This document shows, in pieces, positions 1,910 through 39,474 of a stretch of DNA of 64,000 nt; position 1 is the first letter of the stretch, and each line of letters begins with the position of its first letter. Location: positions 15,007 through 79,006 of the forward strand of contig CAZOTT010000001.1 of assembly GCA_964582785.1 (NCBI GenBank), read 5' to 3'. Source of the DNA: an uncultured Acidobacteriota bacterium (GTDB lineage: Bacteria > Acidobacteriota > Polarisedimenticolia > J045). A model generated the notes under the pieces. The model was given only the letters and a program-made list of their open reading frames with translations, had not been told where the DNA came from and made no database searches. A program made the translations under genes and the position numbers.

Positions 1910-4084
1910 TCAGAAGCTCCTGCTGACCATCACCGAGAGCACGTTGTACCGGCCCGACTCGTCCTCGAGGATCGGGTCGTTGTCGTGGTAGTCGGTCAGC
2001 GTCCAGCCGAGTTCGAGCCCGTACCCGGACGGCAGCCGCCAGCGGGCCCCGAGGTTGAGGTCCCAGGTGCGGACCGAGACGTCCGACAGCTCGTTGACCA
2101 TCTTCCAGTCCCGCGACAGGAAGGAAGCGCCCACCGGGCTGCCGTACGGGGCGAACATGTCCCAGCGGTCCATGCCGCCGGTCATCCGGTTGTACTCGAT
2201 GCCGCCGAAGAGCTGGCCGTTTTCACCGAAGGGGGTACCGAACTCGGTCCCGAGGAAGGTGCCGTCGATCTGGTAGGCGTCCGAGCTTTCATCCCGCCCA
2301 AACTGGGCGGAGGCGAGGGCGCCCGCTCACCCGTTCATCAGCGGGATACACAGGTGTGTCTCCTGGTCCTCCCGCAGCAGGACCCCCGTCACGGTGGTGT
2401 AGAACCGCTCGTTCGGCGTCCACCAGAGGGACGCGCCGACCTCGGCCACGTCGTGGGTCCAGTCGGACACCCGCGTCTGGTCGTTCTGCTCCGAGAGCCA
2501 CTTCCCGTGGAGCGTCAGGGTCGTCTGCTCGGAGGGCACCAGCGTCAGCCGGGTCCGCAGGGCGATCCGGTCCGTGGGCCGGTTCGACAGGTCGGCGATC
2601 CGCCGGCGGTGCAGCTCGAAGTACTGGAGGGACGACCAGGGGAAGTTGGCCGGGTCCGCCACCAGGGCCGGGTCCTCGCCGACCGCGAGGCAGCCGCCCT
2701 TCAGGTTGCGGAACGGGTCGCTGGCCTGGTACCACTCCGCCTCGACCCGGTAGCGGGCGCCGTTCTCGAACCGGCCGAGGAGCTGGGTCCTCAGGGTGTA
2801 CTCCCGGGTGTTGGTCCCGCCACCGTTGTCCACCCGGAAGTTGTCCCGGTCGATGTCCCGGTAGCGCAGGGAGGTCTTCAGGCGGTGGCGCCGGTGTTCC
2901 CCGAAACGCCACACGTACTCCCCGGCCGCGGAGACGACCGTCCGGTCCGCGGCGGACCGGCGGGTCCAGTCGATCTCCACGTCCCGGTCCGCGTAGACGT
3001 CCCGGTAGTAGAGGCCCGCCTGCGGCCCGGCGGAGCCCGGGTACTCCACCACGTCGACGAAGACGTCGTCCGTGTCGACGTTCTCGAGGCGCCCCCGGAG
3101 CGAGAAGGAGTGGGCCTCATCCAGCACGTGGAGCCAGCGTGCCCGGAACGAGTAGTACTTCGCCCGGAGCCCCGTGTGGTCGCTCTCGGCCTTCTGGTAG
3201 GCGGCGGCGGCGTCGAGATGGTCGTGCTCGCCGGTCCAGAAGAGGTGGAGCACGTGGGCGTCCCGGTCATGGCCGGGAACCAGGCCCACCGGCAGGGTCA
3301 CGGGGCCGCCGATGCCGAAGCTCGCCCGGTTGTCGAACACCGGAACCTTCTTCGTGGGGTGGAGCACCTGCTCGAAGACCCGCCGCACCGGGTCGGCGTC
3401 GGCGTCGAAGTTGCTCGAGGTGTACTCGTAGCGCACCCCCCAGTTCGACTTCAGGTAGGCCACCCGGAGGGTGACGTCGTCCATCGTCTGGTCGACGGAG
3501 GCCGACTGGCCGACGATGTGGCAGGTGCGGCAGTGGCCCGCGGAGAGCTGCTGGTGGCTGCCGGACCGGCGCATGTGGCGCGCCAGCAGGGCGAACTCCC
3601 ACGCCCGGTTGTTCACCGGCCGCCAGGCCAGCCGCGCGTGGTCGTCCTCGAACCGGTAGCGGTACCTCGCCCCGGGGTCCATGTCATCGTGGCGGACGAC
3701 CTTGCCGTGCTCGTCCGTCGCGGCGAGGTTCTCCAGCGGATCGTGGGGCAGGTTGTGGACGAAGCGGTTCATGTCCGCCTCGAAGGTGAAGGCATGGGCG
3801 GCGACCAGCTCCAGGTGGTGCCGCTGGTCGTCCGGGTCGAGCAGCTCCATGTCCAGCGACAGGCTGGTGTCGCCGCCGAACCCGGCGTCGAACCAGGCGG
3901 AAAACGCCGCGCTCGACGAGTCCACCTGGTATTCCGCCGCCTTGTTCCGGCTGTTCCGCGCCCGGACCACGTGGGCCCCCACGGCCACCTCACCCGATCC
4001 CCCGCCGTCGTCGGCCGGCACGGCCGGCACGGCGAGCGCCAGGGCGAGGACCGCGAGGAGAACGATCGGCAGTCTGCGTTTCAT
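1910..4084 (-). CDS. MtrB/PioB-family outer-membrane porin of a porin-cytochrome conduit (about 724 aa). The frame is interrupted by an in-frame TGA at 2327-2329. Upstream segment is 2330..4084, downstream segment is 1910..2326.
   Basis: Signal peptide MKRRLPIVLLAVLALALAVPA. Long beta-barrel-like sequence. Both segments are in the same frame with strong GC3 bias. The C-terminal segment ends ...NVLSVMVSRSF with an aromatic terminal residue typical of OMPs. The stop overlaps the 5' side of the mtrA-like gene. Confidence 0.7.
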
Positions 4085-20918: not shown

Positions 20919-22382
20919 TCAGGCCTCGGCCCGCGGCTCCTCCTGCCCGAGGTCGTCCCACCGCCCGGTGCGGAGGTACTCGTCGATCGCCAGGGCCGCC
21001 CGGCGCCCCGCGCCCGCGGCGAGGATCACGGTCGCTCCCCCGGTGACGATGTCGCCCCCGGCGAAGACCCCCTTCATCGTGGTCTTCCCCGTCTTCCGGT
21101 CGGCGACGATGGTTCCCCACTTCGTGTGCTCGATCGCGGGGGACGTCTTGCGGATCATCGGGTTGGCCCCGTTGCCGATCGCGATCACCGCCAGGTCGAG
21201 CTCGAGGACATGCTCCGAGCCCTCGATCGGCACCGGCCGGCGGCGCCCCGAGTCGTCCGGCTCCCCGAGTTCCATCTTCTGCAGCCGCGCCGCCCGGAGC
21301 CACCCGTTCTCGTCCCCGAGGAACTCGACCGGGTTCGTCAGGACGAGGAACTCGACCCCCTCTTCCTTCGCGTGCTTGATCTCCTCGTTCCGCGCCGGCA
21401 TCTCCGCCTCGGACCGGCGGTAGATGATCGCGGCCCGCTTCGCGCCCAGGCGCTTCGCCGTGCGGACCGCGTCCATCGCCGTGTTTCCGCCGCCGAAGAC
21501 CGCGACGTTCTTCCCCGCGATGTCCAGGACCGGGGTCTCGGCGTCCGGGCGGTAGGCCTTCATCAGGTTGACGCGGGTCAGGAACTCGTTCGCCGAGTAG
21601 ACGCCGACCAGGTTCTCGCCCGGGATCCCCATGAAGCGGGGCAGCCCGGCCCCGACGCCGAGGAAGACGGCGTCGAAACCACCGACCGTCAGCAGTTCCT
21701 CGACGGTGTCGGTCATCCCGATCACCGCGTCCGTGACGAACTCGACCCCGAGCTTCTTCAGCTGCTCGATCTCGGCGCGGACGATCTCCTTCGGCAGGCG
21801 GAACTCCGGGATCCCGTAGACCAGCACCCCCCCCAGCTCGTGGAGCGCCTCGAAGACGACCACCTCGTGGCCCATCTTCGCCAGGTCCGTCGCGCAGGAG
21901 AGGCCCGACGGCCCGGACCCGACGACCGCGACCCGCTTGCCGGTCTTCCGGGCGGGCGGCTCGGCCTTCATCAGGCCGTTCCTCCGCTCGTAGTCGGCGA
22001 CGAACCGTTCCAGGTGCCCGATCGCGACGGGGAGCGAGCGCTTGCCGACGATGCACTGGGCCTCGCACTGCTCCTCCTGGGGGCAGACCCGGCCGCAGAT
22101 CGCCGGCAGGGAGTTGTCCTCCTTGATCTTCTTCGCCGCCTCGTCGAAGCGCCGGTCGGCGATCAGCCCGATGAAGTCGCGGATCTTGATGTTGACCGGG
22201 CACCCCTCCTCGCACTTCGGCTTCGGGCACTGGAGGCAGCGGTCCGCCTCGCGGACCGCGAGGTCCTCGTCGAACCCCAGGTTGACCTCCTCGAAGTTGC
22301 AGGCCCGCACCTCGGGCGGCTGCTCCGGCATCTCCTGGCGGGGAATCTGGAACCGCTCCTTCGCCGTCAGCTTCCTCGGCAT
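20919..22382 (-). CDS. nfnB: NADPH-dependent glutamate-synthase-small-subunit-like oxidoreductase (NfnB/SudA/GltD family; 2x[4Fe-4S], FAD, NADPH).
   Basis: MPRKLTAKERFQ...CLQCPKPKCEEGCPVNIKI...ICGRVCPQEEQCEAQC...VAVVGSGPSGLSCA...VAVFGGGNTAMD. Start overlaps the upstream gene's stop. Confidence 0.8.
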   Translation of the reverse strand: MPRKLTAKERFQIPRQEMPEQPPEVRACNFEEVNLGFDEDLAVREADRCLQCPKPKCEEGCPVNIKIRDFIGLIADRRFDEAAKKIKEDNSLPAICGRVCPQEEQCEAQCIVGKRSLPVAIGHLERFVADYERRNGLMKAEPPARKTGKRVAVVGSGPSGLSCATDLAKMGHEVVVFEALHELGGVLVYGIPEFRLPKEIVRAEIEQLKKLGVEFVTDAVIGMTDTVEELLTVGGFDAVFLGVGAGLPRFMGIPGENLVGVYSANEFLTRVNLMKAYRPDAETPVLDIAGKNVAVFGGGNTAMDAVRTAKRLGAKRAAIIYRRSEAEMPARNEEIKHAKEEGVEFLVLTNPVEFLGDENGWLRAARLQKMELGEPDDSGRRRPVPIEGSEHVLELDLAVIAIGNGANPMIRKTSPAIEHTKWGTIVADRKTGKTTMKGVFAGGDIVTGGATVILAAGAGRRAALAIDEYLRTGRWDDLGQEEPRAEA

Positions 22383-23266
22383 CACTCGCCCTCCCTCTCC
22401 AGGTCCCGCAGCCGCAGCTCGAGCCGGCACGGTTCCTCGCCCTGCCCCGCGAGGAACTCCTGCAGCTTCCGCTGCTCCCACTCGCGATAGGTCATGTTGC
22501 GCTTTGCGAGCAGGTCGAAGTCGACCTGGTGGCCGTCGAACTCCGGCCCGTCGACGCAGGCGAACAGGGTCCGGCCCCCGACCGTCACCCGGCACGCGCC
22601 GCACATCCCGGTGCCGTCGAGCATGATCGGGTTGAGGCTGACGACCGTCCTGATCCCGTGGGGGCGCGTGACCTCGGCGACCGCCTTCATCATCGGGATC
22701 GGGCCGATGGCGAGCACGAAGTCGAGCCTGCGTCCCCCGTCGATCAGCTGCTGGAGCTGCTGGGTGACGAAGCCGTGGAAGCCGTAGGAACCGTCGTCGG
22801 TGCAGGGATACACCTCGTCGGCGACGGCCCGCATCTCCTCCTCGAGGATGACGTATTCCCGGGTGCGGCCGCCGATGATGGAGATGACGTGGTTCCCCGC
22901 CCGCTTGAGGGCCACCGCGGTCGGCCAGGCGATCGCGGTTCCCACGCCACCGCCGATCGAGACGGCCGTGCCGAACTTCTCGATGTGCGAGGGAGTCCCC
23001 AGGGGCCCGGCCACGTCGTGGAGCGTGTCCCCCGCCTCCCGGGTGTTCATCAGCTTCGTGGTCTTGCCCACCCCCTGGACGATCAGGGTGATCCACCCCT
23101 CCCCGGCGTCCGAGTCGGCGATCGTCAGGGGGATCCGCTCCCCGTCCTCCGTCACCCGGACGATCACGAACTGGCCCGCCTTCCGCTTCGCCGCGATCTT
23201 GGGCGCCTCGATGCGGAACAGCTTGACGTCCGGCGCGAGGAACCTCGCCTCCAGGATGCGAAACAT
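22382..23266 (-). CDS. nfnA: PyrK-like FAD/[2Fe-2S] ferredoxin-NADP+ reductase subunit (NfnA/SudB).
   Basis: MFRILEARFLAPDVKLFRIEAPKIA...GQFVIVRV...SIGGGVGTAI...CGACRVTVGGRTLFACVDGPEF. Operon partner of the GltD-like gene. Confidence 0.75.
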   Translation of the reverse strand: MFRILEARFLAPDVKLFRIEAPKIAAKRKAGQFVIVRVTEDGERIPLTIADSDAGEGWITLIVQGVGKTTKLMNTREAGDTLHDVAGPLGTPSHIEKFGTAVSIGGGVGTAIAWPTAVALKRAGNHVISIIGGRTREYVILEEEMRAVADEVYPCTDDGSYGFHGFVTQQLQQLIDGGRRLDFVLAIGPIPMMKAVAEVTRPHGIRTVVSLNPIMLDGTGMCGACRVTVGGRTLFACVDGPEFDGHQVDFDLLAKRNMTYREWEQRKLQEFLAGQGEEPCRLELRLRDLEREGE

Positions 23267-31623: not shown

Positions 31624-33902
31624 AGCCGCCAGGCGTAGCCCAGCTTGAGGAAGTAGGTCCGCGCCGCGTCCAGCAGGTCCACCCGGTCGTCCCCGAGCCG
31701 CGTGTCGGTCGTCCCGGCGTAGAGGACGGTCCGGGGGTTGACCTTGTACGAGAAGAGGACCTGGGTGAACAGGCGCCGGGACCGGGCATCCACCGGGAAG
31801 GGGTAGAGAGCGGGGTTCCGCCGGACCTCGGTCCACTGGACGATCGCCCGGACGAAGGTCCGCACGTCGAAGAACCAGACGAGGCGTCCCTGGTGCACGT
31901 CCGCCCGGTAGAGGGTGCCGCCCGGAACCCGGAGCGCCTCCCGGGCCAGGTCGAGCTGCAGGTAGAAGTGCCGTCCCGCGTTCCAGGTGAGCCCCGGGGC
32001 AACCTTCCAGCGATCGCCCGTCCGGTTCCCCGCGTAGTCGATCGCCTCCCCCGCCACGAAGCCGACGGAACAGGTGAAGTCCCCGGTGGGCCGCACGTTG
32101 AACCATCCGCGCCAGCCGGCAAGGTCGTGGACCTTCCCCTGCCACGTCTCCCGGGACCGGGACCGGGAGAGGACCAGGGTGGACTGCCGGGGCCCGGCGA
32201 GCCGCACCTCCAGGCTGCCCCCCTCCCCGAGCAGGTTCCGGGCGCCGTCCAGGGTCCGGTGAAGGTTCACCTGGAAGCGGGCGCTGGTCAGCCGTTCTCC
32301 CGGCTTTCCCCAGCGGGTCCAGGCCGCGTGCCCGCCGAGTTCCCGGGTGTCCACCCGGGGAATGAACCCGGCATCGGCCCGGAACCCCCGGGTGCGGCGT
32401 CCCCAGCCCGCCCAGAGGTCCCACGCCCGGTCCCGGTGGTTGACGTTGACCGACAGGGCCTTCCCGTGGAAGAGCCCGCCCGGCTGGTCGAAGGCGTTCG
32501 CCACGTCGGCCGGGTAGCGGGTGTCCGAGCGGAGGAACTGGAAGATGAGCGCGTTCGTCGCGTCGAGGCGGAGGGTTCCGTCCACCCCGTAGACCCGGTT
32601 CAGGTAGCCCGCCTCCCCTTCCCGGTCGGTGAGGAGCATCCCCAGGGTGGAGGTCGCTCCCACGTCCCGCCGCCACCGCAGCACCGCCGCCGTGTTCCCC
32701 CGGTCGAGGGTCGTGCTCGCCGAGGACCGGCTCGCGGGGAACACCAGGTGGGTCACCCGGTCCCGGGCGACGTACGCCCCGCCCGCGTTCCGTCCCTCCT
32801 TGCCCGTCAGCTTGATCCCGGCGGAGGGGTCCACCACCTGCCGGGTGTGGACCGCCGGGTAGGGAGTCCGGAAGAAGTCCGCCCCCTCGAGGAAGAAGGG
32901 ACGCTTTTCCGGGTAGAAGATCGTGAACGTGCGGTTCACGTCGAGGACGACCGCGTCCGCCTCGACCTGGGAAAAGTCCGGGTTCAGGGCCAGGTCCAGG
33001 CTGGCATTCGGCGTCACCCCCCACCGGGCCGAGAGGCCGAGGTCCGTCTCCTCCGCCCTCGTGGCGAAGCCGCCCTCCGGGAACGGCTCCCGGGCCCGGG
33101 TCCGGCCCCAGGTCAGGGTCGGGTCGAGTTCCACGTCGCGGCCGGGCCGCAGGTCCCGCATCCCGGTGATGCGCGGCACCTGGCAGAGCCAGCAGGAACG
33201 GTTCCGGTCGATCCGGACCGGGTAGTAGGTCTTCCGCACCGACCGGGGCCGGGAGCGGAAGCAGGTGAACCCCCAGGTCTGCGCCCCGGCCTCCCGGGGG
33301 AAACGGAGCGCGTCCAGGGGCACGGCGATCTCGGCGGTCCAGCCGCGGGGGCCGACCCGGGCGGCGGCGCTCCAGATGGCGTCCCAGGACCAGTCCTCGG
33401 CGGGGGCCCCGGTCAGGTTGCCCCGGAACCCGCCGGCCCCGGTGTCGGTGACGACGGCGTCCGACTGGACGCCGAGGGGATTGACCAGGAAGGCGAACCC
33501 CCGCCGGGCGTCGTCGAACGGGTCGACGGCGAACCCCACCTGGTCGTCCCGGAACGCCCGGTCCCGGTCGGCGAGGTGGGCCCGGATCTCCCCGGGATCG
33601 TCCCGGACCCGGAAGGCGACGTACAGGTGGTGCTCGTCCCAGGTGACGAGGCAGGTCGTCTCCACGTCGGCCGGCCGGTTCTCCCCCGGCCAGACCTCCC
33701 ACGGGAGCGGGATCTCGAGGGCCCGGCGCCAGGCCTCCTCGTCGAGCCGCCCGTCGACGCGGATCGGGCCGGCGGCCCGGGGAGCGGCGAGGACCGGGCG
33801 GGGGGTCTCCGCCGCGGCCACGGGAGGGCGGCACAGGGCCCACACGAGCCCCGCCGCCAGCATCCACCGAAACGTCCCGGCCGCGCGCATGGCGCCCAGC
33901 AT
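31620..33902 (-). CDS. Secreted DUF5916 protein with an N-terminal CBM9/DOMON-like domain (760 aa).
   Basis: Signal peptide MLGAMRAAGTFRWMLAAGLVWALCRPPVAAAE. ...PIRVDGRLDEEAWRRALEIPLPWEVWPGENRP...HHLYVAFRVRDD.... C-terminal ...YFLKLGYAWRL. Confidence 0.6.
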   Translation of the reverse strand: MLGAMRAAGTFRWMLAAGLVWALCRPPVAAAETPRPVLAAPRAAGPIRVDGRLDEEAWRRALEIPLPWEVWPGENRPADVETTCLVTWDEHHLYVAFRVRDDPGEIRAHLADRDRAFRDDQVGFAVDPFDDARRGFAFLVNPLGVQSDAVVTDTGAGGFRGNLTGAPAEDWSWDAIWSAAARVGPRGWTAEIAVPLDALRFPREAGAQTWGFTCFRSRPRSVRKTYYPVRIDRNRSCWLCQVPRITGMRDLRPGRDVELDPTLTWGRTRAREPFPEGGFATRAEETDLGLSARWGVTPNASLDLALNPDFSQVEADAVVLDVNRTFTIFYPEKRPFFLEGADFFRTPYPAVHTRQVVDPSAGIKLTGKEGRNAGGAYVARDRVTHLVFPASRSSASTTLDRGNTAAVLRWRRDVGATSTLGMLLTDREGEAGYLNRVYGVDGTLRLDATNALIFQFLRSDTRYPADVANAFDQPGGLFHGKALSVNVNHRDRAWDLWAGWGRRTRGFRADAGFIPRVDTRELGGHAAWTRWGKPGERLTSARFQVNLHRTLDGARNLLGEGGSLEVRLAGPRQSTLVLSRSRSRETWQGKVHDLAGWRGWFNVRPTGDFTCSVGFVAGEAIDYAGNRTGDRWKVAPGLTWNAGRHFYLQLDLAREALRVPGGTLYRADVHQGRLVWFFDVRTFVRAIVQWTEVRRNPALYPFPVDARSRRLFTQVLFSYKVNPRTVLYAGTTDTRLGDDRVDLLDAARTYFLKLGYAWRL

Positions 33903-34023
33903 GCCATGGAATCCCGCCCCGGTCGGCGGTTTCCGGGGGAAGGGGGACGACGGCGAGGGGGGACGGGTGCTAGCATGGCGGGCAGCCGGACCGAGACCAT
34001 CCCCCCACCGGAGGGTGCGCCCG

Positions 34024-36519
34024 ATGTCGACCGAACCGACCGTCCGCCCGGCGGCCGTCCCGCCGGAGATCCCCGTCGAGCCGGTCCTCCACGCCCCGCG
34101 GGAAATCGTCGAGCTGCGCCGGGGGAACACCCGGGTGCTCCTCGACCCGGAGACCCCCCACTGGGTCGCGACCGACCCCCGGGGCGCCTCGATCCTCCTC
34201 GCCTTCCGGGACGGCGCCCGGCCCGACGACGTGGCCCGCCGCCTGGCGGAACGGGAAGGACTCCCCCTGGTCACCGCCCGGCTGCGGGTCGACGCGGTGG
34301 CCCGGGAGGCGCTCCGGTGCGGCTTCCTGGCGGAGGCCCCGCCGGTTCCCCTGCCCCACCTCGGGCGGGAGACCCTGCTGCCGGAGGGGCGGCTGGAAGA
34401 GTTCTGGGTCCACCTGAACGACGCCTGCAACCTGGCGTGCCGCCACTGCCTCGTCTCCTCCGGTCCCGGCGGGGACCCGGGGCTCCCCGGCGAGACGATC
34501 GCCGCCGCTCTCCGGGAGGCCCGGGAGCTGGGGGCCCGGACGTTCTGCTTCACCGGTGGAGAACCGCTCCTGCGGCCCGACTTCGCGGAGCTGGCCGCCG
34601 CCGCCCTCGAGGACCCGCGGGCCGAGCTGGCCGTCCTGACCAACGGCCTCCTGCTCCGGGAGGAGACGATCGCGTCCTGGCGGGGCCACCTCGACCTCGA
34701 GCGGATCCGCTTCCAGGTCAGCCTCGACGGGTCCTCCCCGGAGGTGAACGACCCGGTCCGCGGGCGCGGAAGCTTCGAGCGGATCGTGGCCGGGATCCGG
34801 GACGCCCTCGCGGCGGGGCTGGACGTGACGGTGACCACCACCGTCACCGGCCGCAACCTCCCGGACGTGCCCCGGGTGACCCGGCTCGTCGGGGAGCTGG
34901 GGGGGCGGACGCACCACCTGCTCTGGCTCCACCGCCGGGGCCGCGCCGCGGAGGCGGACGGCGCGCCGTCCCCGGCCGAGGTCCTGGGGGCCGTCCGGGC
35001 GGCGGCGGAGGCCGGCCGGGAGGCGGGGGTCACCGTGGACAACGTGGCGGCGGTCCGGGCCCGGGTGAACCACGAACCCGGCACCCGGAGGGACCTCTCG
35101 AGCGCCGCCGTGACGAACCTCTGCCTCCACCGGGACGGGGCGGTCTATCCCTCCGCGTCCCTCGTCGGGATCGAGGAGCTGCGGCTCGGCACGTTCGGGA
35201 AGCGTCCCCTCGGGGACCTGCTCCGGGCGAGCGAGGTCGCGCGCCGGTTCCGCCGGGCCTCCCTCGTCCGCAAGGAGGCCTGTCCCTCCTGCCCCGTGCG
35301 CTTCCTCTGCGGCGGGGGCGACGTGGAGCACGCCTGGCTCTGGGGCGGCAGTCTCGACGCGATGGACCCCTGGTGCGAGCTCCACCGGGGAATGACCGAG
35401 GACGCCCTGCTCGACCGGGCGGAGGAACGGGGCCGGGTCGGGGCCGGGCCGGAATCCGGGTGGACGGACCCCCGGCTCCTGACGTTCATGGGGGAAGGGT
35501 CCCACGCCTGCGGCAGCGGGGACGGGGACGAAGCGGGTCGCCTCGTCGTCTCGAGCTCGGAGTGCGTGCTCTCCTTCGAGCTGGACGCCACCCGGCGGAT
35601 CGTCCGGGAGTTCTACGGGAACGCCGCGGACCACCCGGAGGAGGACCTCTGCTGCCCCGTGCGGCCCCGCCCGACGGACATCGAGCACATCCCGCCGGGG
35701 GTGGTCGAGCGGTTCTACGGGTGCGGCTCCCCGGTAATCCAGGCCGACCCCCGGCCGGGGGAGACGACCCTCGACCTCGGTTCCGGGGCGGGCATCGACG
35801 TCTTCATCTGCGCCCGGCGCGTCGGCCCCGGGGGGCGGGCGCTCGGCGTCGACATGACCGACCGGATGCTGGCGGTCGCCGGGGAAGCCCGGAAGAAGGT
35901 CGCCGCGAACCTCGGTTACGACAACGTCGAGTTCCGGAAGGGGTTCCTCGAGGACCTGCCGGTGGAGGATGCGAGCGTCGACCTCGTCACCTCGAACTGC
36001 GTGATCAACCTGTCGCCGGACAAGCGCCGGGTGTTCCGGGAGATCTGGCGCGTGCTGCGCAACGGGGGGCGGTTCGTGGTCTCGGACATCGTCGCCGAGC
36101 GGGAGGTCCCCGCCGCGAAGCGGCAGGACCCCCGCCTGTGGGGCCAGTGCATCTCCGGCGCCCTGACCGAGGAGGAGTTCCTCGCCGCCCTGGAGCGGGC
36201 CGGGTTCCACGGGATCGAGGTCCTCGAGAAGTTCTTCTGGCGGGAGGTGGACGGGTACCGCTTCTTCTCCGTGACGGTGCGGGGCTGGCGCCACGACCGG
36301 GGGGAGGTGTCGGAGGGCGGGAAGGAAACCGCCGTCTACCTCGGGCCGCACCGGGCGGTGGTGGACGACCAGGGGATCTTCTTCCCGCGGGGCGTTCCCG
36401 TCCCGGTGGACGCGGCGACGGCCGACCGCCTGCGCCGGCCGCCCTACGCCGGCCGTTTCCAGGTGGGCGAGGTGGCGCCGAAACCGGGGCGGGGGGACTG
36501 CGGCTGCCGGAACTGCTGA
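34024..36519 (+). CDS. Tripartite fusion protein (831 aa): N-terminal PqqD-like (RRE-like) segment, radical-SAM core with SPASM-type auxiliary Cys cluster, and a C-terminal ArsM/AS3MT-family As(III) SAM-methyltransferase domain.
   Basis: RBS GGAGGG. rSAM signature CNLACRHC plus FTGGEPLL. SPASM-like CPSCPVRFLCGGGD...WCELH. ArsM hallmarks LCCPVRP...RFYGCG, LDLGSGAGID, SNCVINLSPDK, LWGQCISGAL and a C-terminal GDCGCRNC. Followed by a strong terminator. Confidence 0.75.
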   Translation: MSTEPTVRPAAVPPEIPVEPVLHAPREIVELRRGNTRVLLDPETPHWVATDPRGASILLAFRDGARPDDVARRLAEREGLPLVTARLRVDAVAREALRCGFLAEAPPVPLPHLGRETLLPEGRLEEFWVHLNDACNLACRHCLVSSGPGGDPGLPGETIAAALREARELGARTFCFTGGEPLLRPDFAELAAAALEDPRAELAVLTNGLLLREETIASWRGHLDLERIRFQVSLDGSSPEVNDPVRGRGSFERIVAGIRDALAAGLDVTVTTTVTGRNLPDVPRVTRLVGELGGRTHHLLWLHRRGRAAEADGAPSPAEVLGAVRAAAEAGREAGVTVDNVAAVRARVNHEPGTRRDLSSAAVTNLCLHRDGAVYPSASLVGIEELRLGTFGKRPLGDLLRASEVARRFRRASLVRKEACPSCPVRFLCGGGDVEHAWLWGGSLDAMDPWCELHRGMTEDALLDRAEERGRVGAGPESGWTDPRLLTFMGEGSHACGSGDGDEAGRLVVSSSECVLSFELDATRRIVREFYGNAADHPEEDLCCPVRPRPTDIEHIPPGVVERFYGCGSPVIQADPRPGETTLDLGSGAGIDVFICARRVGPGGRALGVDMTDRMLAVAGEARKKVAANLGYDNVEFRKGFLEDLPVEDASVDLVTSNCVINLSPDKRRVFREIWRVLRNGGRFVVSDIVAEREVPAAKRQDPRLWGQCISGALTEEEFLAALERAGFHGIEVLEKFFWREVDGYRFFSVTVRGWRHDRGEVSEGGKETAVYLGPHRAVVDDQGIFFPRGVPVPVDAATADRLRRPPYAGRFQVGEVAPKPGRGDCGCRNC

Positions 36520-36553
36520 CCGGCCAGCCCCGTTCGTCGGCGTTCGACGGTTC

Positions 36554-36605
36554 CCGGCCCGGCCGCCGGAAGTTGTCCGGCCGGGCCGGTGCGGTTACTT
36601 TTCTG
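36554..36605 (+). terminator. Intrinsic terminator: stem of at least 12 bp (ccggcccggccg / cggccgggccgg) followed by TTACTTTTCT.
   Basis: Inverted repeat plus T-tract immediately after the rSAM-ArsM stop. Confidence 0.55.
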
Positions 36606-37486: not shown

Positions 37487-39474
37487 CCGCTCGCTCCCTC
37501 CCGGTCCCCCTCCTTCTGCTCCCGGCCCTCCTCCTGCCCGCCGGGGCCCGGCCTCCCCACCCCGACTCCGGGACCGCCCGGGCAGGCTGGGCCCCGGTGG
37601 CCGCCCGGGTGGGGCGGCCTTCGGTCCACGACCTCGGGCCGGTCCGGTTGCGCGATCTCCCGCCGCACGTGCCGCAACCGGGCCGCGCCCCCGTGCTGGT
37701 TCCCAACGTGTTCCCGGAGCCGGCCGAGATCCCGGGGGATCGCCCCGGCCGGCGGGAACCGGCGGCCGGCGGGGGGAACGGGGACGAACGCCTGGTCCTC
37801 GTCGAAGCCCCCGGCCCGGCCCCGTCTCCCGCGGCCACCGGCGCGTCCTTCCCCGCGATCGACGTCCGCTTCGACGGTCCCTACGACGGCGGCGTCGCCC
37901 CCCCGGACCCGGTGATGGCCCCGGGCAGCCGGCACGTGGTCGTCCTGGTCAACCTGGTGATGGCCGTGTACGACAGGCAGGGAACCCGGCTGTCGGGACC
38001 GACCTCCCTCCGGTCCTTCTTCGGCATCCCCGCCGGCTTCAACGTGTTCGACCCGGTGGCGGTTCCCGACCCGTTCCGCGACCGGTTCGTGGTCGGCGTG
38101 GCGGCCCGGAAGGCGGCGGACCAGGACTCGCGGATCTACCTCGCCTTTTCCGACGGGAACGACGCCACCGGCACCTGGCACCGCTTCTGGATCGACGCCG
38201 ACGCCGGCCAGGACGGGAACTGGGCCGACTACCCGGCGATCGGCCTCGACCGGCTCGCCGTCTACGTGACGGCGAACATGTTCAGCGCCTCGGACGCCTA
38301 CCGGAACGCCACCCTGTTCATCGTCGACAAGGACGCGGCCTACGCCGGCCAGGACCCCGCCGTGACGACCCTGATCGATGTCCGCACTTCGGGGGGCGGC
38401 TCCCCCTACCGGCTGCGTCCCGCCTACGTCCCGGCCGCGACCCCGGGCGACGCCTACTTCCTCGTCTACGGGAACAACGCCTTCGCCAGCAGCTTCGAGA
38501 TCTTCCGCCTGACGGGGGACCGGTTCGCGAACCCGTCCCTTTCCGCCAGCCCGGTCGGGTTGCCCGGCTCGTACTTCGCCCCCGGGGACGCGAACCAGCC
38601 GGGGGAGACCGGGGTCCCGACCCTCGGGGCGAACCCGTGGAACGTCTTCTGGCGCAGTGACGGGACGCTGTGGACCGCCCAGGCGATCAGCGGCAGCGGC
38701 CAGATCGCGGTCTGGGTGCACGAGTTCGACGTCTCGGGGACGACGCCGACGCGGGTGCGGACCTGGGAACTGTCGGTCCCGGGGGAGGACTCCTACTTTC
38801 CCCACGTCGTCCCGGATACCGAGGACGACGACTTCGCGCTGCTGACCGCCTTCTCCGGGGACGACACCTACGTCACGGGGCGGTACTGGAACGTCGGGGC
38901 GGACGGTTCCGTGCGGGCGGCGGAGCTGCTCGTCGAGGGAACCCGGGTGAACGGCTCCGGCCGGCACGGCGACTACTTCGCGATGTACCCGGACCCGTCG
39001 GACCGCAACCGGGTCTGGATGATCGCCCAGTACATGAAGAACAGCTCCTTCTCGGGCAACTCGATCGTCGCCTCGGTTCCCTTCGAGGAGGCCGCTCCAC
39101 CGCCCTCCCCGCCCCCCGTTCCCGACGGAAAGGACGTGGCGGGCGAGGAGGTACACGTCCGCCGGAACGGCGACGGCACCCTGACGGTCACCTGGGACGC
39201 CTCCACCTGCCCCGCGCCCGGCAATCACCTGGTCTGGTACGACCTCGGGGCGATCGCTTCCTACCAGGTCACCGCCGAGACGTGCGCCGTCGGGACCAGC
39301 GGCTCGTGGACCGGGAACGCCCCCGCCGGCAACGTGGCCGTGATCGTCGTCTCGGACGACGACGCCACGGTCGAGGGGTCCCACGGTGTCGACTCCGCCG
39401 GGAACGAGCGCCCGTCGGTGTCCTCGTCCTGCGGCTTCACCTCGAAGGACACCTCCGGCACCTGCACCCCCTAG
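37483..39474 (+). CDS. Secreted hypothetical protein (663 aa) with a Cys-containing C-terminal tail. ATGA overlap with the cyclophilin gene.
   Basis: Signal peptide MTARSLPVPLLLLPALLLPAGA. GC3 bias throughout. No heme or other recognisable motifs. Confidence 0.55.
   Translation: MTARSLPVPLLLLPALLLPAGARPPHPDSGTARAGWAPVAARVGRPSVHDLGPVRLRDLPPHVPQPGRAPVLVPNVFPEPAEIPGDRPGRREPAAGGGNGDERLVLVEAPGPAPSPAATGASFPAIDVRFDGPYDGGVAPPDPVMAPGSRHVVVLVNLVMAVYDRQGTRLSGPTSLRSFFGIPAGFNVFDPVAVPDPFRDRFVVGVAARKAADQDSRIYLAFSDGNDATGTWHRFWIDADAGQDGNWADYPAIGLDRLAVYVTANMFSASDAYRNATLFIVDKDAAYAGQDPAVTTLIDVRTSGGGSPYRLRPAYVPAATPGDAYFLVYGNNAFASSFEIFRLTGDRFANPSLSASPVGLPGSYFAPGDANQPGETGVPTLGANPWNVFWRSDGTLWTAQAISGSGQIAVWVHEFDVSGTTPTRVRTWELSVPGEDSYFPHVVPDTEDDDFALLTAFSGDDTYVTGRYWNVGADGSVRAAELLVEGTRVNGSGRHGDYFAMYPDPSDRNRVWMIAQYMKNSSFSGNSIVASVPFEEAAPPPSPPPVPDGKDVAGEEVHVRRNGDGTLTVTWDASTCPAPGNHLVWYDLGAIASYQVTAETCAVGTSGSWTGNAPAGNVAVIVVSDDDATVEGSHGVDSAGNERPSVSSSCGFTSKDTSGTCTP

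Follow-up and report, generated by a model that had tools for sequence, protein, structure and literature searches.

A radical-SAM/SPASM enzyme fused to an ArsM-type methyltransferase: a candidate bifunctional organoarsenical synthase from uncultured bacteria

All arsenic-carbon bonds known from bacteria are made by S-adenosylmethionine (SAM) enzymes, and two pairs of a radical-SAM enzyme with the methyltransferase ArsM have been established (bioRxiv 10.1101/2024.02.01.577332; PMC12159101). In arsenosugar synthesis, ArsS adds a 5'-deoxyadenosyl group to arsenic (PMC12159101; bioRxiv 10.1101/2024.02.01.577332). In arsinothricin synthesis, ArsL adds a 3-amino-3-carboxypropyl group (bioRxiv 10.1101/2024.02.01.577332; PMC12159101), and arsenite is bound by the C-terminal RCCLKC tail of ArsL (bioRxiv 10.1101/2024.02.01.577332). 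Here, we analyzed a stretch of 64,000 nucleotides from an uncultured Acidobacteriota bacterium (contig CAZOTT010000001.1 of assembly GCA_964582785.1, positions 15,007 to 79,006), hereafter the window, which harbors a complete open reading frame (ORF) of 831 codons on the plus strand (positions 34024 to 36519, stop codon at 36517 to 36519). Its product carries, in one polypeptide, a head of the recognition element (RRE) type known from maturases of ribosomally synthesized and posttranslationally modified peptides (RiPPs), a SPASM-type radical-SAM enzyme, and a complete ArsM. This architecture had been proposed in a preliminary description of the sequence, and domain searches, alignment, and a structural model agree on it.

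Like the ArsS-ArsM pair, the fusion unites a radical-SAM enzyme with ArsM, and its relatives share with the ArsS cassette the genes for TIGR04282, TIGR04283, a TVP38-FAD oxidoreductase, thioredoxin with CcdA/DsbD-like proteins, an extracytoplasmic function (ECF) sigma factor, and an FAD oxidoreductase. However, its radical-SAM part shares only the superfamily core with ArsS, has an RRE head and a SPASM-type extension where ArsS has its own C-terminal domain, and is covalently joined to the second activity. The ArsL-ArsM pair of Burkholderia gladioli also combines radical-SAM formation of an As-C bond with ArsM, and the cysteine tail of ArsL is comparable to the cysteine tails of the fusion family; in contrast, ArsL is a separate, noncanonical enzyme that uses a 3-amino-3-carboxypropyl radical and has neither RRE nor SPASM. 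The RRE-bearing SPASM maturases of RiPPs (CteB, TigE, SuiB, AlbA/StsB, MftB-MftC, and PqqD-PqqE) resemble the fusion in domain order, in the fold over approximately 480 residues, in the CX3CX2C and CX2CX5C motifs, and in the PqqD-like head. They differ in sequence (identity of only 13 to 20%), in that the fusion has an invariant Ser and Asp at two of the seven SPASM cysteine positions and an attached ArsM, and in its partners, which are glycosyl, lipid, and redox genes with no cognate precursor found. Finally, the C-terminal 300 residues or so correspond to CmArsM, CrArsM, and human AS3MT, with 35% identity, the same three-domain fold, and the four cysteines, although here ArsM is the C-terminal module of an 831-residue protein and falls slightly below the cut-off of the NCBIfam subfamily.

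We propose that the fusion may act as a bifunctional organoarsenical synthase in which a SPASM-type enzyme fills the role of ArsS; judged from sequence, model, and analogy, we hold this to be about evenly balanced between right and wrong. Coupled methylation and radical As-C bond formation is the best-supported reading because SPASM-ArsM fusions occur independently of domain order and come with the partner set of the ArsS cassette, and because ArsS is missing from those loci, phosphate/arsenate transporters adjoin them, and flexible segments bear cysteines. Since the radical-SAM part is not an ArsS homolog, the arrangement would be analogous to the ArsS/ArsM pair, the parallel drawn in the preliminary description, rather than that pair in fused form.

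The polypeptide begins with an RRE/PqqD-like winged-helix head (34099 to 34338, plus strand; residues ~26 to 105), in which P45 and W47 of a DPxxPxW motif are invariant. In an AlphaFold model built on a 117-sequence alignment (mean predicted local distance difference test [pLDDT] score of 88.6; predicted template modeling score of 0.89), residues 29 to 98 are predicted, with pLDDT above 90, to form strands 29 to 33, 36 to 41, and 46 to 50, followed by helices 52 to 59, 67 to 78, and 82 to 98. This would be the three-strand, three-helix winged-helix fold of the RRE at the maturase N terminus. By sequence, the match to PqqD (PF05402; residues 38 to 102, E value of 9.5e-4) scored 19.9 bits, below the gathering cut-off of 23.4 bits, which many homologs do reach; precomputed PqqD and SPASM matches are likewise carried by many of them. 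Thus, the PqqD-like head previously noted stands as a modeled fold but not as a Pfam family match of this particular protein.

The radical-SAM core follows (34399 to 35058, plus strand; residues ~126 to 345). The predicted CNLACRHC and FTGGEP (residues 176 to 181) motifs are both present, the former providing the CX3CX2C cysteines C135, C139, and C142 (34426 to 34449) and the latter the GGEP at 178 to 181, and PF04055 matched residues 133 to 280 with 94.2 bits against a cut-off of 29.5 (E value of 1.3e-26). Together with the invariance of the three cysteines and of G178-G179-E180 and with the matching fold, this places the protein in the radical-SAM superfamily. Further residues invariant in the 117-sequence alignment are the polar barrel residues H298, W301, H303, R307, D339, N340, R347, and D357 and a GGGD-x-x-H motif at residues 430 to 436.

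The SPASM-type extension (35059 to 35463, plus strand; residues ~346 to 480) contains C367, C420, C423, C429, and C451, each at least 90% conserved among the 117 sequences, and the stretch CPSCPVRFLCGGGD at residues 420 to 433. Five of the seven canonical SPASM cysteines are therefore present, and the seven-cysteine motif CX9-15GX4C...CX2CX5CX3C...C is incomplete; by motif spacing, the invariant S377 and D433 occupy the cysteine positions of GX4C and CX3C, respectively. A Pfam SPASM (PF13186) match was not found for the window protein itself, though its homologs have one, and a sequence search of the PDB aligned the SPASM region of CteB with residues 366 to 468. The SPASM-like cysteine cluster noted earlier is thus borne out by fold and five cysteines, with two of the seven replaced. 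By analogy with the anSME and PqqE structures, from which the ligands were assigned, one auxiliary-cluster site is likely intact and the second degenerate.

In a Foldseek search of the PDB, residues ~1 to 480, head included, matched CteB and TigE with a template modeling (TM) score of 0.72 on the target, and SuiB, SkfB, anSME, PqqE, and ChlB were matched as well; the PDB sequence search agreed, with BlsE, SkfB, MoaA, and PqqE matching the radical-SAM core. Among NCBIfam models, the radical-SAM half matched only generic SPASM-class families (the Rv1681 family, MftC, NirJ2, AhbD, and StsB, as well as WgkB and AlbA), MftC being among the best full-length matches. Sequence and model together identify this half as a predicted radical-SAM enzyme of the RRE and SPASM, RiPP-maturase-like class, unrelated to ArsS. 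Overall, the protein is an atypical SPASM and RRE protein and a member of the radical-SAM superfamily and of the ArsM family, not of the ArsS family.

These likenesses raise the question of whether the enzyme is a RiPP or protein maturase, in which the head would bind a leader peptide or protein tail, the radical-SAM/SPASM part would cross-link or otherwise modify the bound chain, and the ArsM-like domain would then methylate a residue, such as a thiol, or act on a peptide-bound metalloid. The best matches of the N-terminal 480 residues are RRE-bearing maturases (CteB, TigE, SuiB, and SkfB), models of StsB, MftC, WgkB, and AlbA match the radical-SAM half, DPxxPxW is invariant and under purifying selection, and the label "PqqD family peptide modification chaperone" has been given to some members by NCBI. 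Nevertheless, when ORFs of 18 to 90 residues within 1.5 kb of the gene were clustered by blastp-short across 81 loci, no conserved small ORF emerged as a candidate precursor, a search with limited sensitivity for very short or distant precursors; all small ORFs recurring near the fusion were shadows of real neighboring genes. Many fusion operons are tightly packed with 4-nucleotide overlaps and hence have no room for a precursor gene. Moreover, the neighbors are glycosyl, lipid, redox, and phosphate-transport genes rather than proteases or exporters, and all four arsenic-binding cysteines of ArsM are invariant. We therefore consider a maturase quite improbable, and the peptide substrate contemplated in the preliminary description is disfavored. 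In a related but very improbable scenario, a functional RRE head would hold a peptide, protein tail, or carrier while the radical-SAM domain joins carbon to ArsM-methylated arsenic. If true, this would yield an organoarsenical linked to a peptide, a protein, or a lipid carrier and belonging to an undescribed class, for example an "arseno-RiPP" or an arsenolipid precursor, and the enzyme would add a third radical-SAM route to As-C bonds, with a mechanism of its own.

A flexible linker (35464 to 35583, plus strand) connects the two halves and contains the invariant C514 within "SECVLS." In the AlphaFold model, disorder is predicted for residues 1 to 9, for the linker at 499 to 504 (pLDDT below 50), and for the Cys-rich tail at 822 to 831 (pLDDT below 50). 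The C514 segment corresponds to the cysteine tail ("FHC[SA]CVLT" or "RFxC[TA]") that ends stand-alone and reversed-order homologs of the radical-SAM clade and, from this correspondence, is a putative remnant of it.

The ArsM/AS3MT-type methyltransferase (35584 to 36468, plus strand; residues ~521 to 815) shows all the hallmarks listed in the preliminary description. Its cysteines lie in LCCP (C543/C544), FYGCG (C567), SNCVINLS (C659), and LWGQC (C709), and the class I SAM-binding fold, with its LDLGSGAGID motif, and the ArsM C-terminal domain are also present; Methyltransf_31 matched residues 578 to 727 with an E value of 8e-32. To the four arsenic-binding positions of CmArsM, C44, C72, C174, and C224, correspond C543/C544, C567, C659, and C709, which are invariant in the 117 family members. 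In the search with the C-terminal 339 residues, CmArsM (4FR0) was matched over chain residues 60 to 332 (E value of 1e-43), pairing C567, C659, and C709 with Cys72, Cys174, and Cys224, and the first cysteine, that of LCCP, was covered by the alignment to CrArsM (5EVJ). Foldseek likewise matched the domain to CmArsM, CrArsM, and human AS3MT (E value of ~4e-22, 30 to 36% identity, TM score of 0.61 to 0.66 on the target). Judged by residues and predicted fold, the C-terminal half would be a complete ArsM-type As(III) SAM methyltransferase with the four arsenic-binding cysteines. Among NCBIfam models, NF008823, "arsenite methyltransferase," ranked first with 234 bits against a cut-off of 263, followed by the arsinothricin ArsM model (192 bits; cut-off, 500), and the arsenosugar ArsM model reached 136 bits (cut-off, 400). 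Beyond the domain lies a Cys-rich, disordered tail (36469 to 36516, plus strand) with the cluster C826, C828, and C831, where most relatives end in CC. In this last part of the gene (~36310 to 36516), the clade of the window protein, which includes P0002, lacks two cysteines that are at least 90% conserved elsewhere, C763 ("AGCVY") and C796 ("CTDT"), and ends in CGCRNC in place of the usual terminal CC (residues 830 and 831).

The fusion is not an artifact. In the window, which has a GC content of approximately 73% and whose raw ORF lists are dominated by shadow frames, a frame-specific composition check gave a GC content at third codon positions of 0.92 to 1.00 in every 150-nucleotide block of the gene, with no internal stop; this is the coding pattern of this genome and confirms the single, uniform frame described before. 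An identical protein is encoded on another metagenome contig in ENA; further homologs are 99, 88, and 85% identical, and full-length relatives (815 to 860 residues) with 48 to 60% identity number more than 120. Uniform coding statistics, the identical protein elsewhere, and hundreds of colinear homologs, found in at least 80 genomes, thus rule out a frameshift or the joining of two genes by an assembly error. The survey of distribution also shows that the architecture is not rare: the family has hundreds of database members, under generic names such as "methyltransferase domain-containing protein" and "radical SAM protein with SPASM domain," with the PqqD-family chaperone name on some. A scan of one genome per GTDB species gave at least 80 full-length loci, all in metagenome-assembled genomes, from at least eight phylum-level lineages: Acidobacteriota (Vicinamibacterales, Thermoanaerobaculia, and Terriglobia), Nitrospirota, Planctomycetota including anammox Scalindua and Brocadiales, Gemmatimonadota, Dadabacteria, Eisenbacteria, Hydrogenedentota, and others. 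Three loci with overlong match spans (L039, L068, and L074) each hold one intact fusion gene, and no homolog of the radical-SAM half was found in a plasmid collection.

The closest locus among those found, L001, comes from an uncultured Acidobacteriota genome and is syntenic with the window over 22 kb. Against L001, the ratio of nonsynonymous to synonymous substitution rates (dN/dS) was 0.12 for the head, 0.13 for the radical-SAM core, 0.12 for the SPASM region, 0.20 for the linker, 0.03 for the catalytic part of ArsM, and 0.08 for its C-terminal domain (0.11 for the whole gene), so all parts are maintained by selection. Apart from these domains, the first 25 codons (34024 to 34098) form an N-terminal extension not present in most relatives, with a dN/dS of approximately 1 and an unusually low dS relative to L001. 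This might point to a different true start or to a regulatory constraint that overlaps the coding sequence; the ATG at 34024 nonetheless has a good Shine-Dalgarno-like sequence, GGAGGG (34010 to 34015, plus strand), read from the sequence 8 nucleotides upstream.

To see in which combinations the radical-SAM part occurs, residues 1 to 505 were used as the query of an exhaustive, profile-free search, and the resulting 155 representative clusters (E value below 1e-30) were sorted by Pfam, NCBIfam, and motif inspection. Besides the RRE-rSAM-SPASM-ArsM order and a second large fusion clade of approximately 804 residues in Nitrospirota, ArsM is joined to the same radical-SAM clade in two further architectures. 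One is a reversed ArsM-rSAM-SPASM protein of 681 to 711 residues (P0153, P0162, and P0168), whose N-terminal half scored 234 bits with NF008823. The other, of approximately 1,000 to 1,080 residues (about 1,020 to 1,080 in P0138, P0148, and P0163), is rSAM-SPASM-ArsM followed by DUF5714, which matches the model of the "metal-binding double selenoprotein MbdU." In other proteins (~715 to 756 residues), rSAM-SPASM is joined to a different class I methyltransferase, and stand-alone forms of 440 to 520 residues also occur; both the stand-alone and the reversed forms end in the conserved cysteine tail. In the Nitrospirota fusions of ~804 residues, a B12-binding radical-SAM gene directly follows (L087:9445-10929 and L088:9445-10923), and in L087, PhoU_div and PHO4 follow as well. 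Small proteins are encoded immediately upstream of stand-alone homologs at L084:6646-7023 and L089:6166-6654 (125 and 162 residues, no family match) and at L085:6418-6999 (DUF169); they could possibly be carrier or partner proteins.

Next, the neighborhoods were examined by de novo clustering of all ORFs in 81 loci, followed by Pfam and NCBIfam searches. The recurrent partners include two families that NCBI each names "arsenosugar biosynthesis glycosyltransferase": TIGR04282 (DUF2064), which lies directly downstream on the same strand, often a few bases past the fusion stop (211.6 and 209.8 bits; cut-off, 134), and TIGR04283, a family 2 glycosyltransferase (GT2; 226 to 259 bits near fusions; cut-off, 182). 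Also recurrent are DUF547, a GT87-like membrane transferase of the GT-C type, a membrane GT2, DUF3179, and ECF sigma factors. Further partners are ResA/TlpA-like redoxins accompanied by DsbD-like proteins, VTT/TVP38 proteins accompanied by MerA/GR-like flavoproteins, and sarcosine-oxidase-like flavoproteins, and phosphate transporters (PHO4/PitA and PstSC), as well as PhoU, are frequent immediate neighbors. In Scalindua (for instance, L020), genes for GT2, DUF3179, the GT87-like protein, and the fusion follow one another, all overlapping or nearly so; in L027, the fusion is followed by TIGR04282, ResA, and DsbD. Loci counted as well flanked when 5 kb or more was available on each side of the fusion gene numbered 40. 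One or more partner families occur in 34 of them, and TIGR04282 or TIGR04283 in 21; the remaining 6 have no partner, the window and L001 among them. In Vicinamibacterales, a radical-SAM protein of approximately 717 residues is encoded 1 to 5 kb downstream of the fusion (L030 to L033, L047, L048, L053, L060, L065, and L066; for instance, L032:13651-15801); it resembles the tetraether lipid synthase Tes and TrsS (NF045702, 311 bits; cut-off, 450) and occurs in 12 of the 40 well-flanked loci.

This partner set recalls an arsS cassette on a Burkholderia thailandensis plasmid, which, as annotated by the Prokaryotic Genome Annotation Pipeline, contains arsS with genes for a thioredoxin, a CcdA-family protein, an ECF sigma factor with its zf-HC2 partner, a major facilitator superfamily transporter, a methylthioadenosine phosphorylase, TIGR04283, TIGR04282, an FAD oxidoreductase, and a bifunctional TVP38-FAD oxidoreductase. 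When its proteins were used as queries against the fusion and stand-alone loci, TIGR04283 was found in 26, TIGR04282 in 22, and TVP38-FAD in 14, and ArsS itself was found by tblastn in none of the 89 loci and not in the window. Neither does an ArsS model appear in the top 25 of the 100 NCBIfam models that the protein matched, and none of those 25 reaches its cut-off. By these searches, homology of the radical-SAM half to ArsS was rejected. From gene content, a SPASM-type enzyme appears to occupy the position of ArsS in the cassette.

The same neighborhoods have to be weighed against a cassette that does not concern arsenic at all. Here, the enzyme pair would act on another soft metalloid or chalcogen (Se, Sb, or Te), or its target would be a head group linked to sulfur or lipid, yielding a glycosylated membrane or cofactor molecule in formal resemblance to MftC/MftF/MftM of mycofactocin synthesis. 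TIGR04283 is an "MftF-like" transferase, and MftC, as noted above, ranks with the best full-length matches of the radical-SAM half. The partners include rhodanese, DUF169, DsbD/ResA-like proteins, and the MbdU-like domain, and lipid genes recur (CDP-alcohol phosphatidyltransferase, LPG_synthase_TM, GDPD, GT87-like, and VTT). Stand-alone operons, in particular, combine TIGR04282 (189 bits) and TIGR04283 (254 bits) with VTT, LPG_synthase_TM, CDP-alcohol phosphatidyltransferase, GDPD, GT87/MptA_B, rhodanese, and DUF169 without a nearby ArsM, and the arsenosugar names of the two glycosyltransferase families are purely associative. However, the methyltransferase of the fusion is nearest in sequence and fold to proven As(III) methylators and keeps their exact four-cysteine site, ArsS, whose slot the enzyme appears to fill, is reported to adenosylate arsenic (PMC12159101; bioRxiv 10.1101/2024.02.01.577332), and phosphate/arsenate transporters adjoin the fusions. 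On this evidence, a substrate other than arsenic is unlikely.

In the window itself, the fusion gene is a stand-alone transcription unit without local partner genes. Its divergent upstream neighbor encodes a CBM9/DUF5916 protein, and the fusion frame, which stays open upstream of the ATG (33265 to 34023, stop to stop), there has the composition signature of this minus-strand gene. Further upstream lie a sigma-70 factor, an SSF symporter, and an Fe-ADH-like protein; downstream are a secreted cyclophilin, a 658-residue protein without a Pfam match, and an ABC ATPase with a UPF0014 permease. These neighbors are kept only in the near-identical relatives L001 and L002 and are therefore uninformative on function. 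As previously noted for arsR, arsB, and arsC, no ars gene was seen among the 25 neighboring genes scanned, and apart from a generic peroxiredoxin, no gene of the arsenosugar cassette or partner set was found in the whole window.

A solitary gene with its own terminator is often the setting of resistance genes, and host lineages are largely anaerobic or microoxic, with thiol-redox genes as frequent neighbors in other loci. These observations would suit arsenic detoxification or volatilization, in which ArsM does the chemistry and the radical-SAM half merely supports it under anoxia, for example by donating electrons that re-reduce the ArsM cysteine pairs or by redox sensing. An electron relay, though, would not need the full radical-SAM apparatus (CX3CX2C, GGE, and the polar barrel residues) that is conserved across phyla. 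In addition, arsR, arsB, acr3, and arsC were not seen beside the fusion in the window or in the census of immediate neighbors, and stand-alone radical-SAM relatives lack ArsM but have glycosyltransferases. Detoxification is accordingly, in our estimation, decidedly unlikely.

For the bifunctional organoarsenical synthase, we infer arsenic as the substrate as well as the order of the steps, the radical partner, the hand-over by cysteine tails, and what the remaining auxiliary cluster does. First, the ArsM cysteines would capture As(III), and SAM-dependent methylation would convert it into methylated As(III) species. The arsenical would then be passed on, probably thiolate bound to a flexible cysteine segment, either the C514 linker or the C-terminal tail. 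A second SAM would be cleaved at the C135/C139/C142 cluster, and the resulting radical would form a further As-C bond, the extra electron going to the remaining SPASM auxiliary cluster; that radical may be the 5'-deoxyadenosyl species, as with ArsS, or one that this species generates on a substrate. Fusion to ArsM would channel a toxic, oxygen-sensitive intermediate. In most relatives, the TIGR04282/TIGR04283 transferases, together with membrane enzymes for glycosyl and lipid chemistry, might then turn the product into compounds resembling arsenosugars or arsenolipids; in many of them, such head groups are the end products suggested by the lipid and glycosyl partners.

Several points weigh against this proposal. 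The window and L001 lack every partner gene, and the context comes from relatives of 43 to 60% identity; the channeled C-As chemistry anticipated in the preliminary description thus draws support from the partner sets of relatives and the repeated ArsM fusions but not from the window. The names of TIGR04282 and TIGR04283 derive from co-occurrence with ArsS and not from assays, and TIGR04282 is typed "hypoth_equivalog." The ArsM domain lies below the NF008823 cut-off and far below that of the arsenosugar ArsM model, and the clade of the window protein has lost C763, C796, and the terminal CC. For the conserved RRE head, a function in small-molecule chemistry is not apparent. Finally, no ArsM is encoded within 7 kb of the stand-alone radical-SAM relatives, though TIGR04282 and TIGR04283 are kept, and so the cassette may in some cases work without methylation or may serve a purpose unrelated to arsenic.

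If the proposal is true, the family represents a third radical-SAM route to As-C bonds beside ArsS and ArsL, on a different scaffold and covalently coupled to ArsM. In this family, small-molecule metalloid chemistry appears to have taken over a scaffold of the RiPP type, RRE included. The family occurs widely among uncultured lineages that are dominant in soils, aquifers, sediments, and oxygen-minimum zones (Vicinamibacterales and other Acidobacteriota, Nitrospirota, anammox Scalindua, and Gemmatimonadota), ocean bacteria included. To our knowledge, which organisms outside cyanobacteria and algae make arsenosugars and arsenolipids, and by which route, is an open question in arsenic biogeochemistry, and a single expressible and assayable gene makes part of it directly testable. 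The family would also be a metagenomic marker for organoarsenical synthesis that current annotation, with its generic names, misses. No curated NCBIfam model claims the fusion protein, and a full-text literature search, in which subscription journals were mostly outside the coverage, returned no paper on the family, so that an earlier description is possible.

Regarding the signals that flank the gene, a promoter scan found no sigma-70-type site upstream of it; the string TGcTAGCAT, taken earlier for an extended -10-like element, does exist at 33968 to 33976 but does not coincide with such a site. Downstream, a terminator scan detected a GC-rich hairpin with a U-rich tract (36546 to 36605, plus strand), with a folding energy of -34 kcal/mol. 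It is a plausible intrinsic terminator, yet only moderately better than shuffled sequences (z of -1.7) and hence less strong than first described. An Rfam search of the window gave no riboswitch or other RNA family.

Other features of the window were noted in passing. The 658-residue ORF downstream of the fusion (37498 to 39474, plus strand) has a strong coding signature, is 85% identical in L001, and was found in no other locus. At 20922 to 23260 (minus strand), a pair of genes resembles NADPH-dependent Fe-S flavoprotein subunits (Fer4_20 with Pyr_redox_2, and a DHODB-type Fe-S/FAD-binding subunit), adjoined by a nitrilase-family CN_hydrolase. The sole tRNA of the window, tRNA-Gln (CTG), lies at 2384 to 2457 (minus strand), at the 3' edge of a region that a crude coding scan assigned to a minus-strand ORF. 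Lastly, a 1,465-residue ORF (43722 to 48116, minus strand) combines a gingipain-like Peptidase_C25 domain and its propeptide with a proprotein-convertase P domain, CARDB/DUF11, and an InhA-like MAM domain, and its product is, by domain content, a predicted large secreted multidomain protease.

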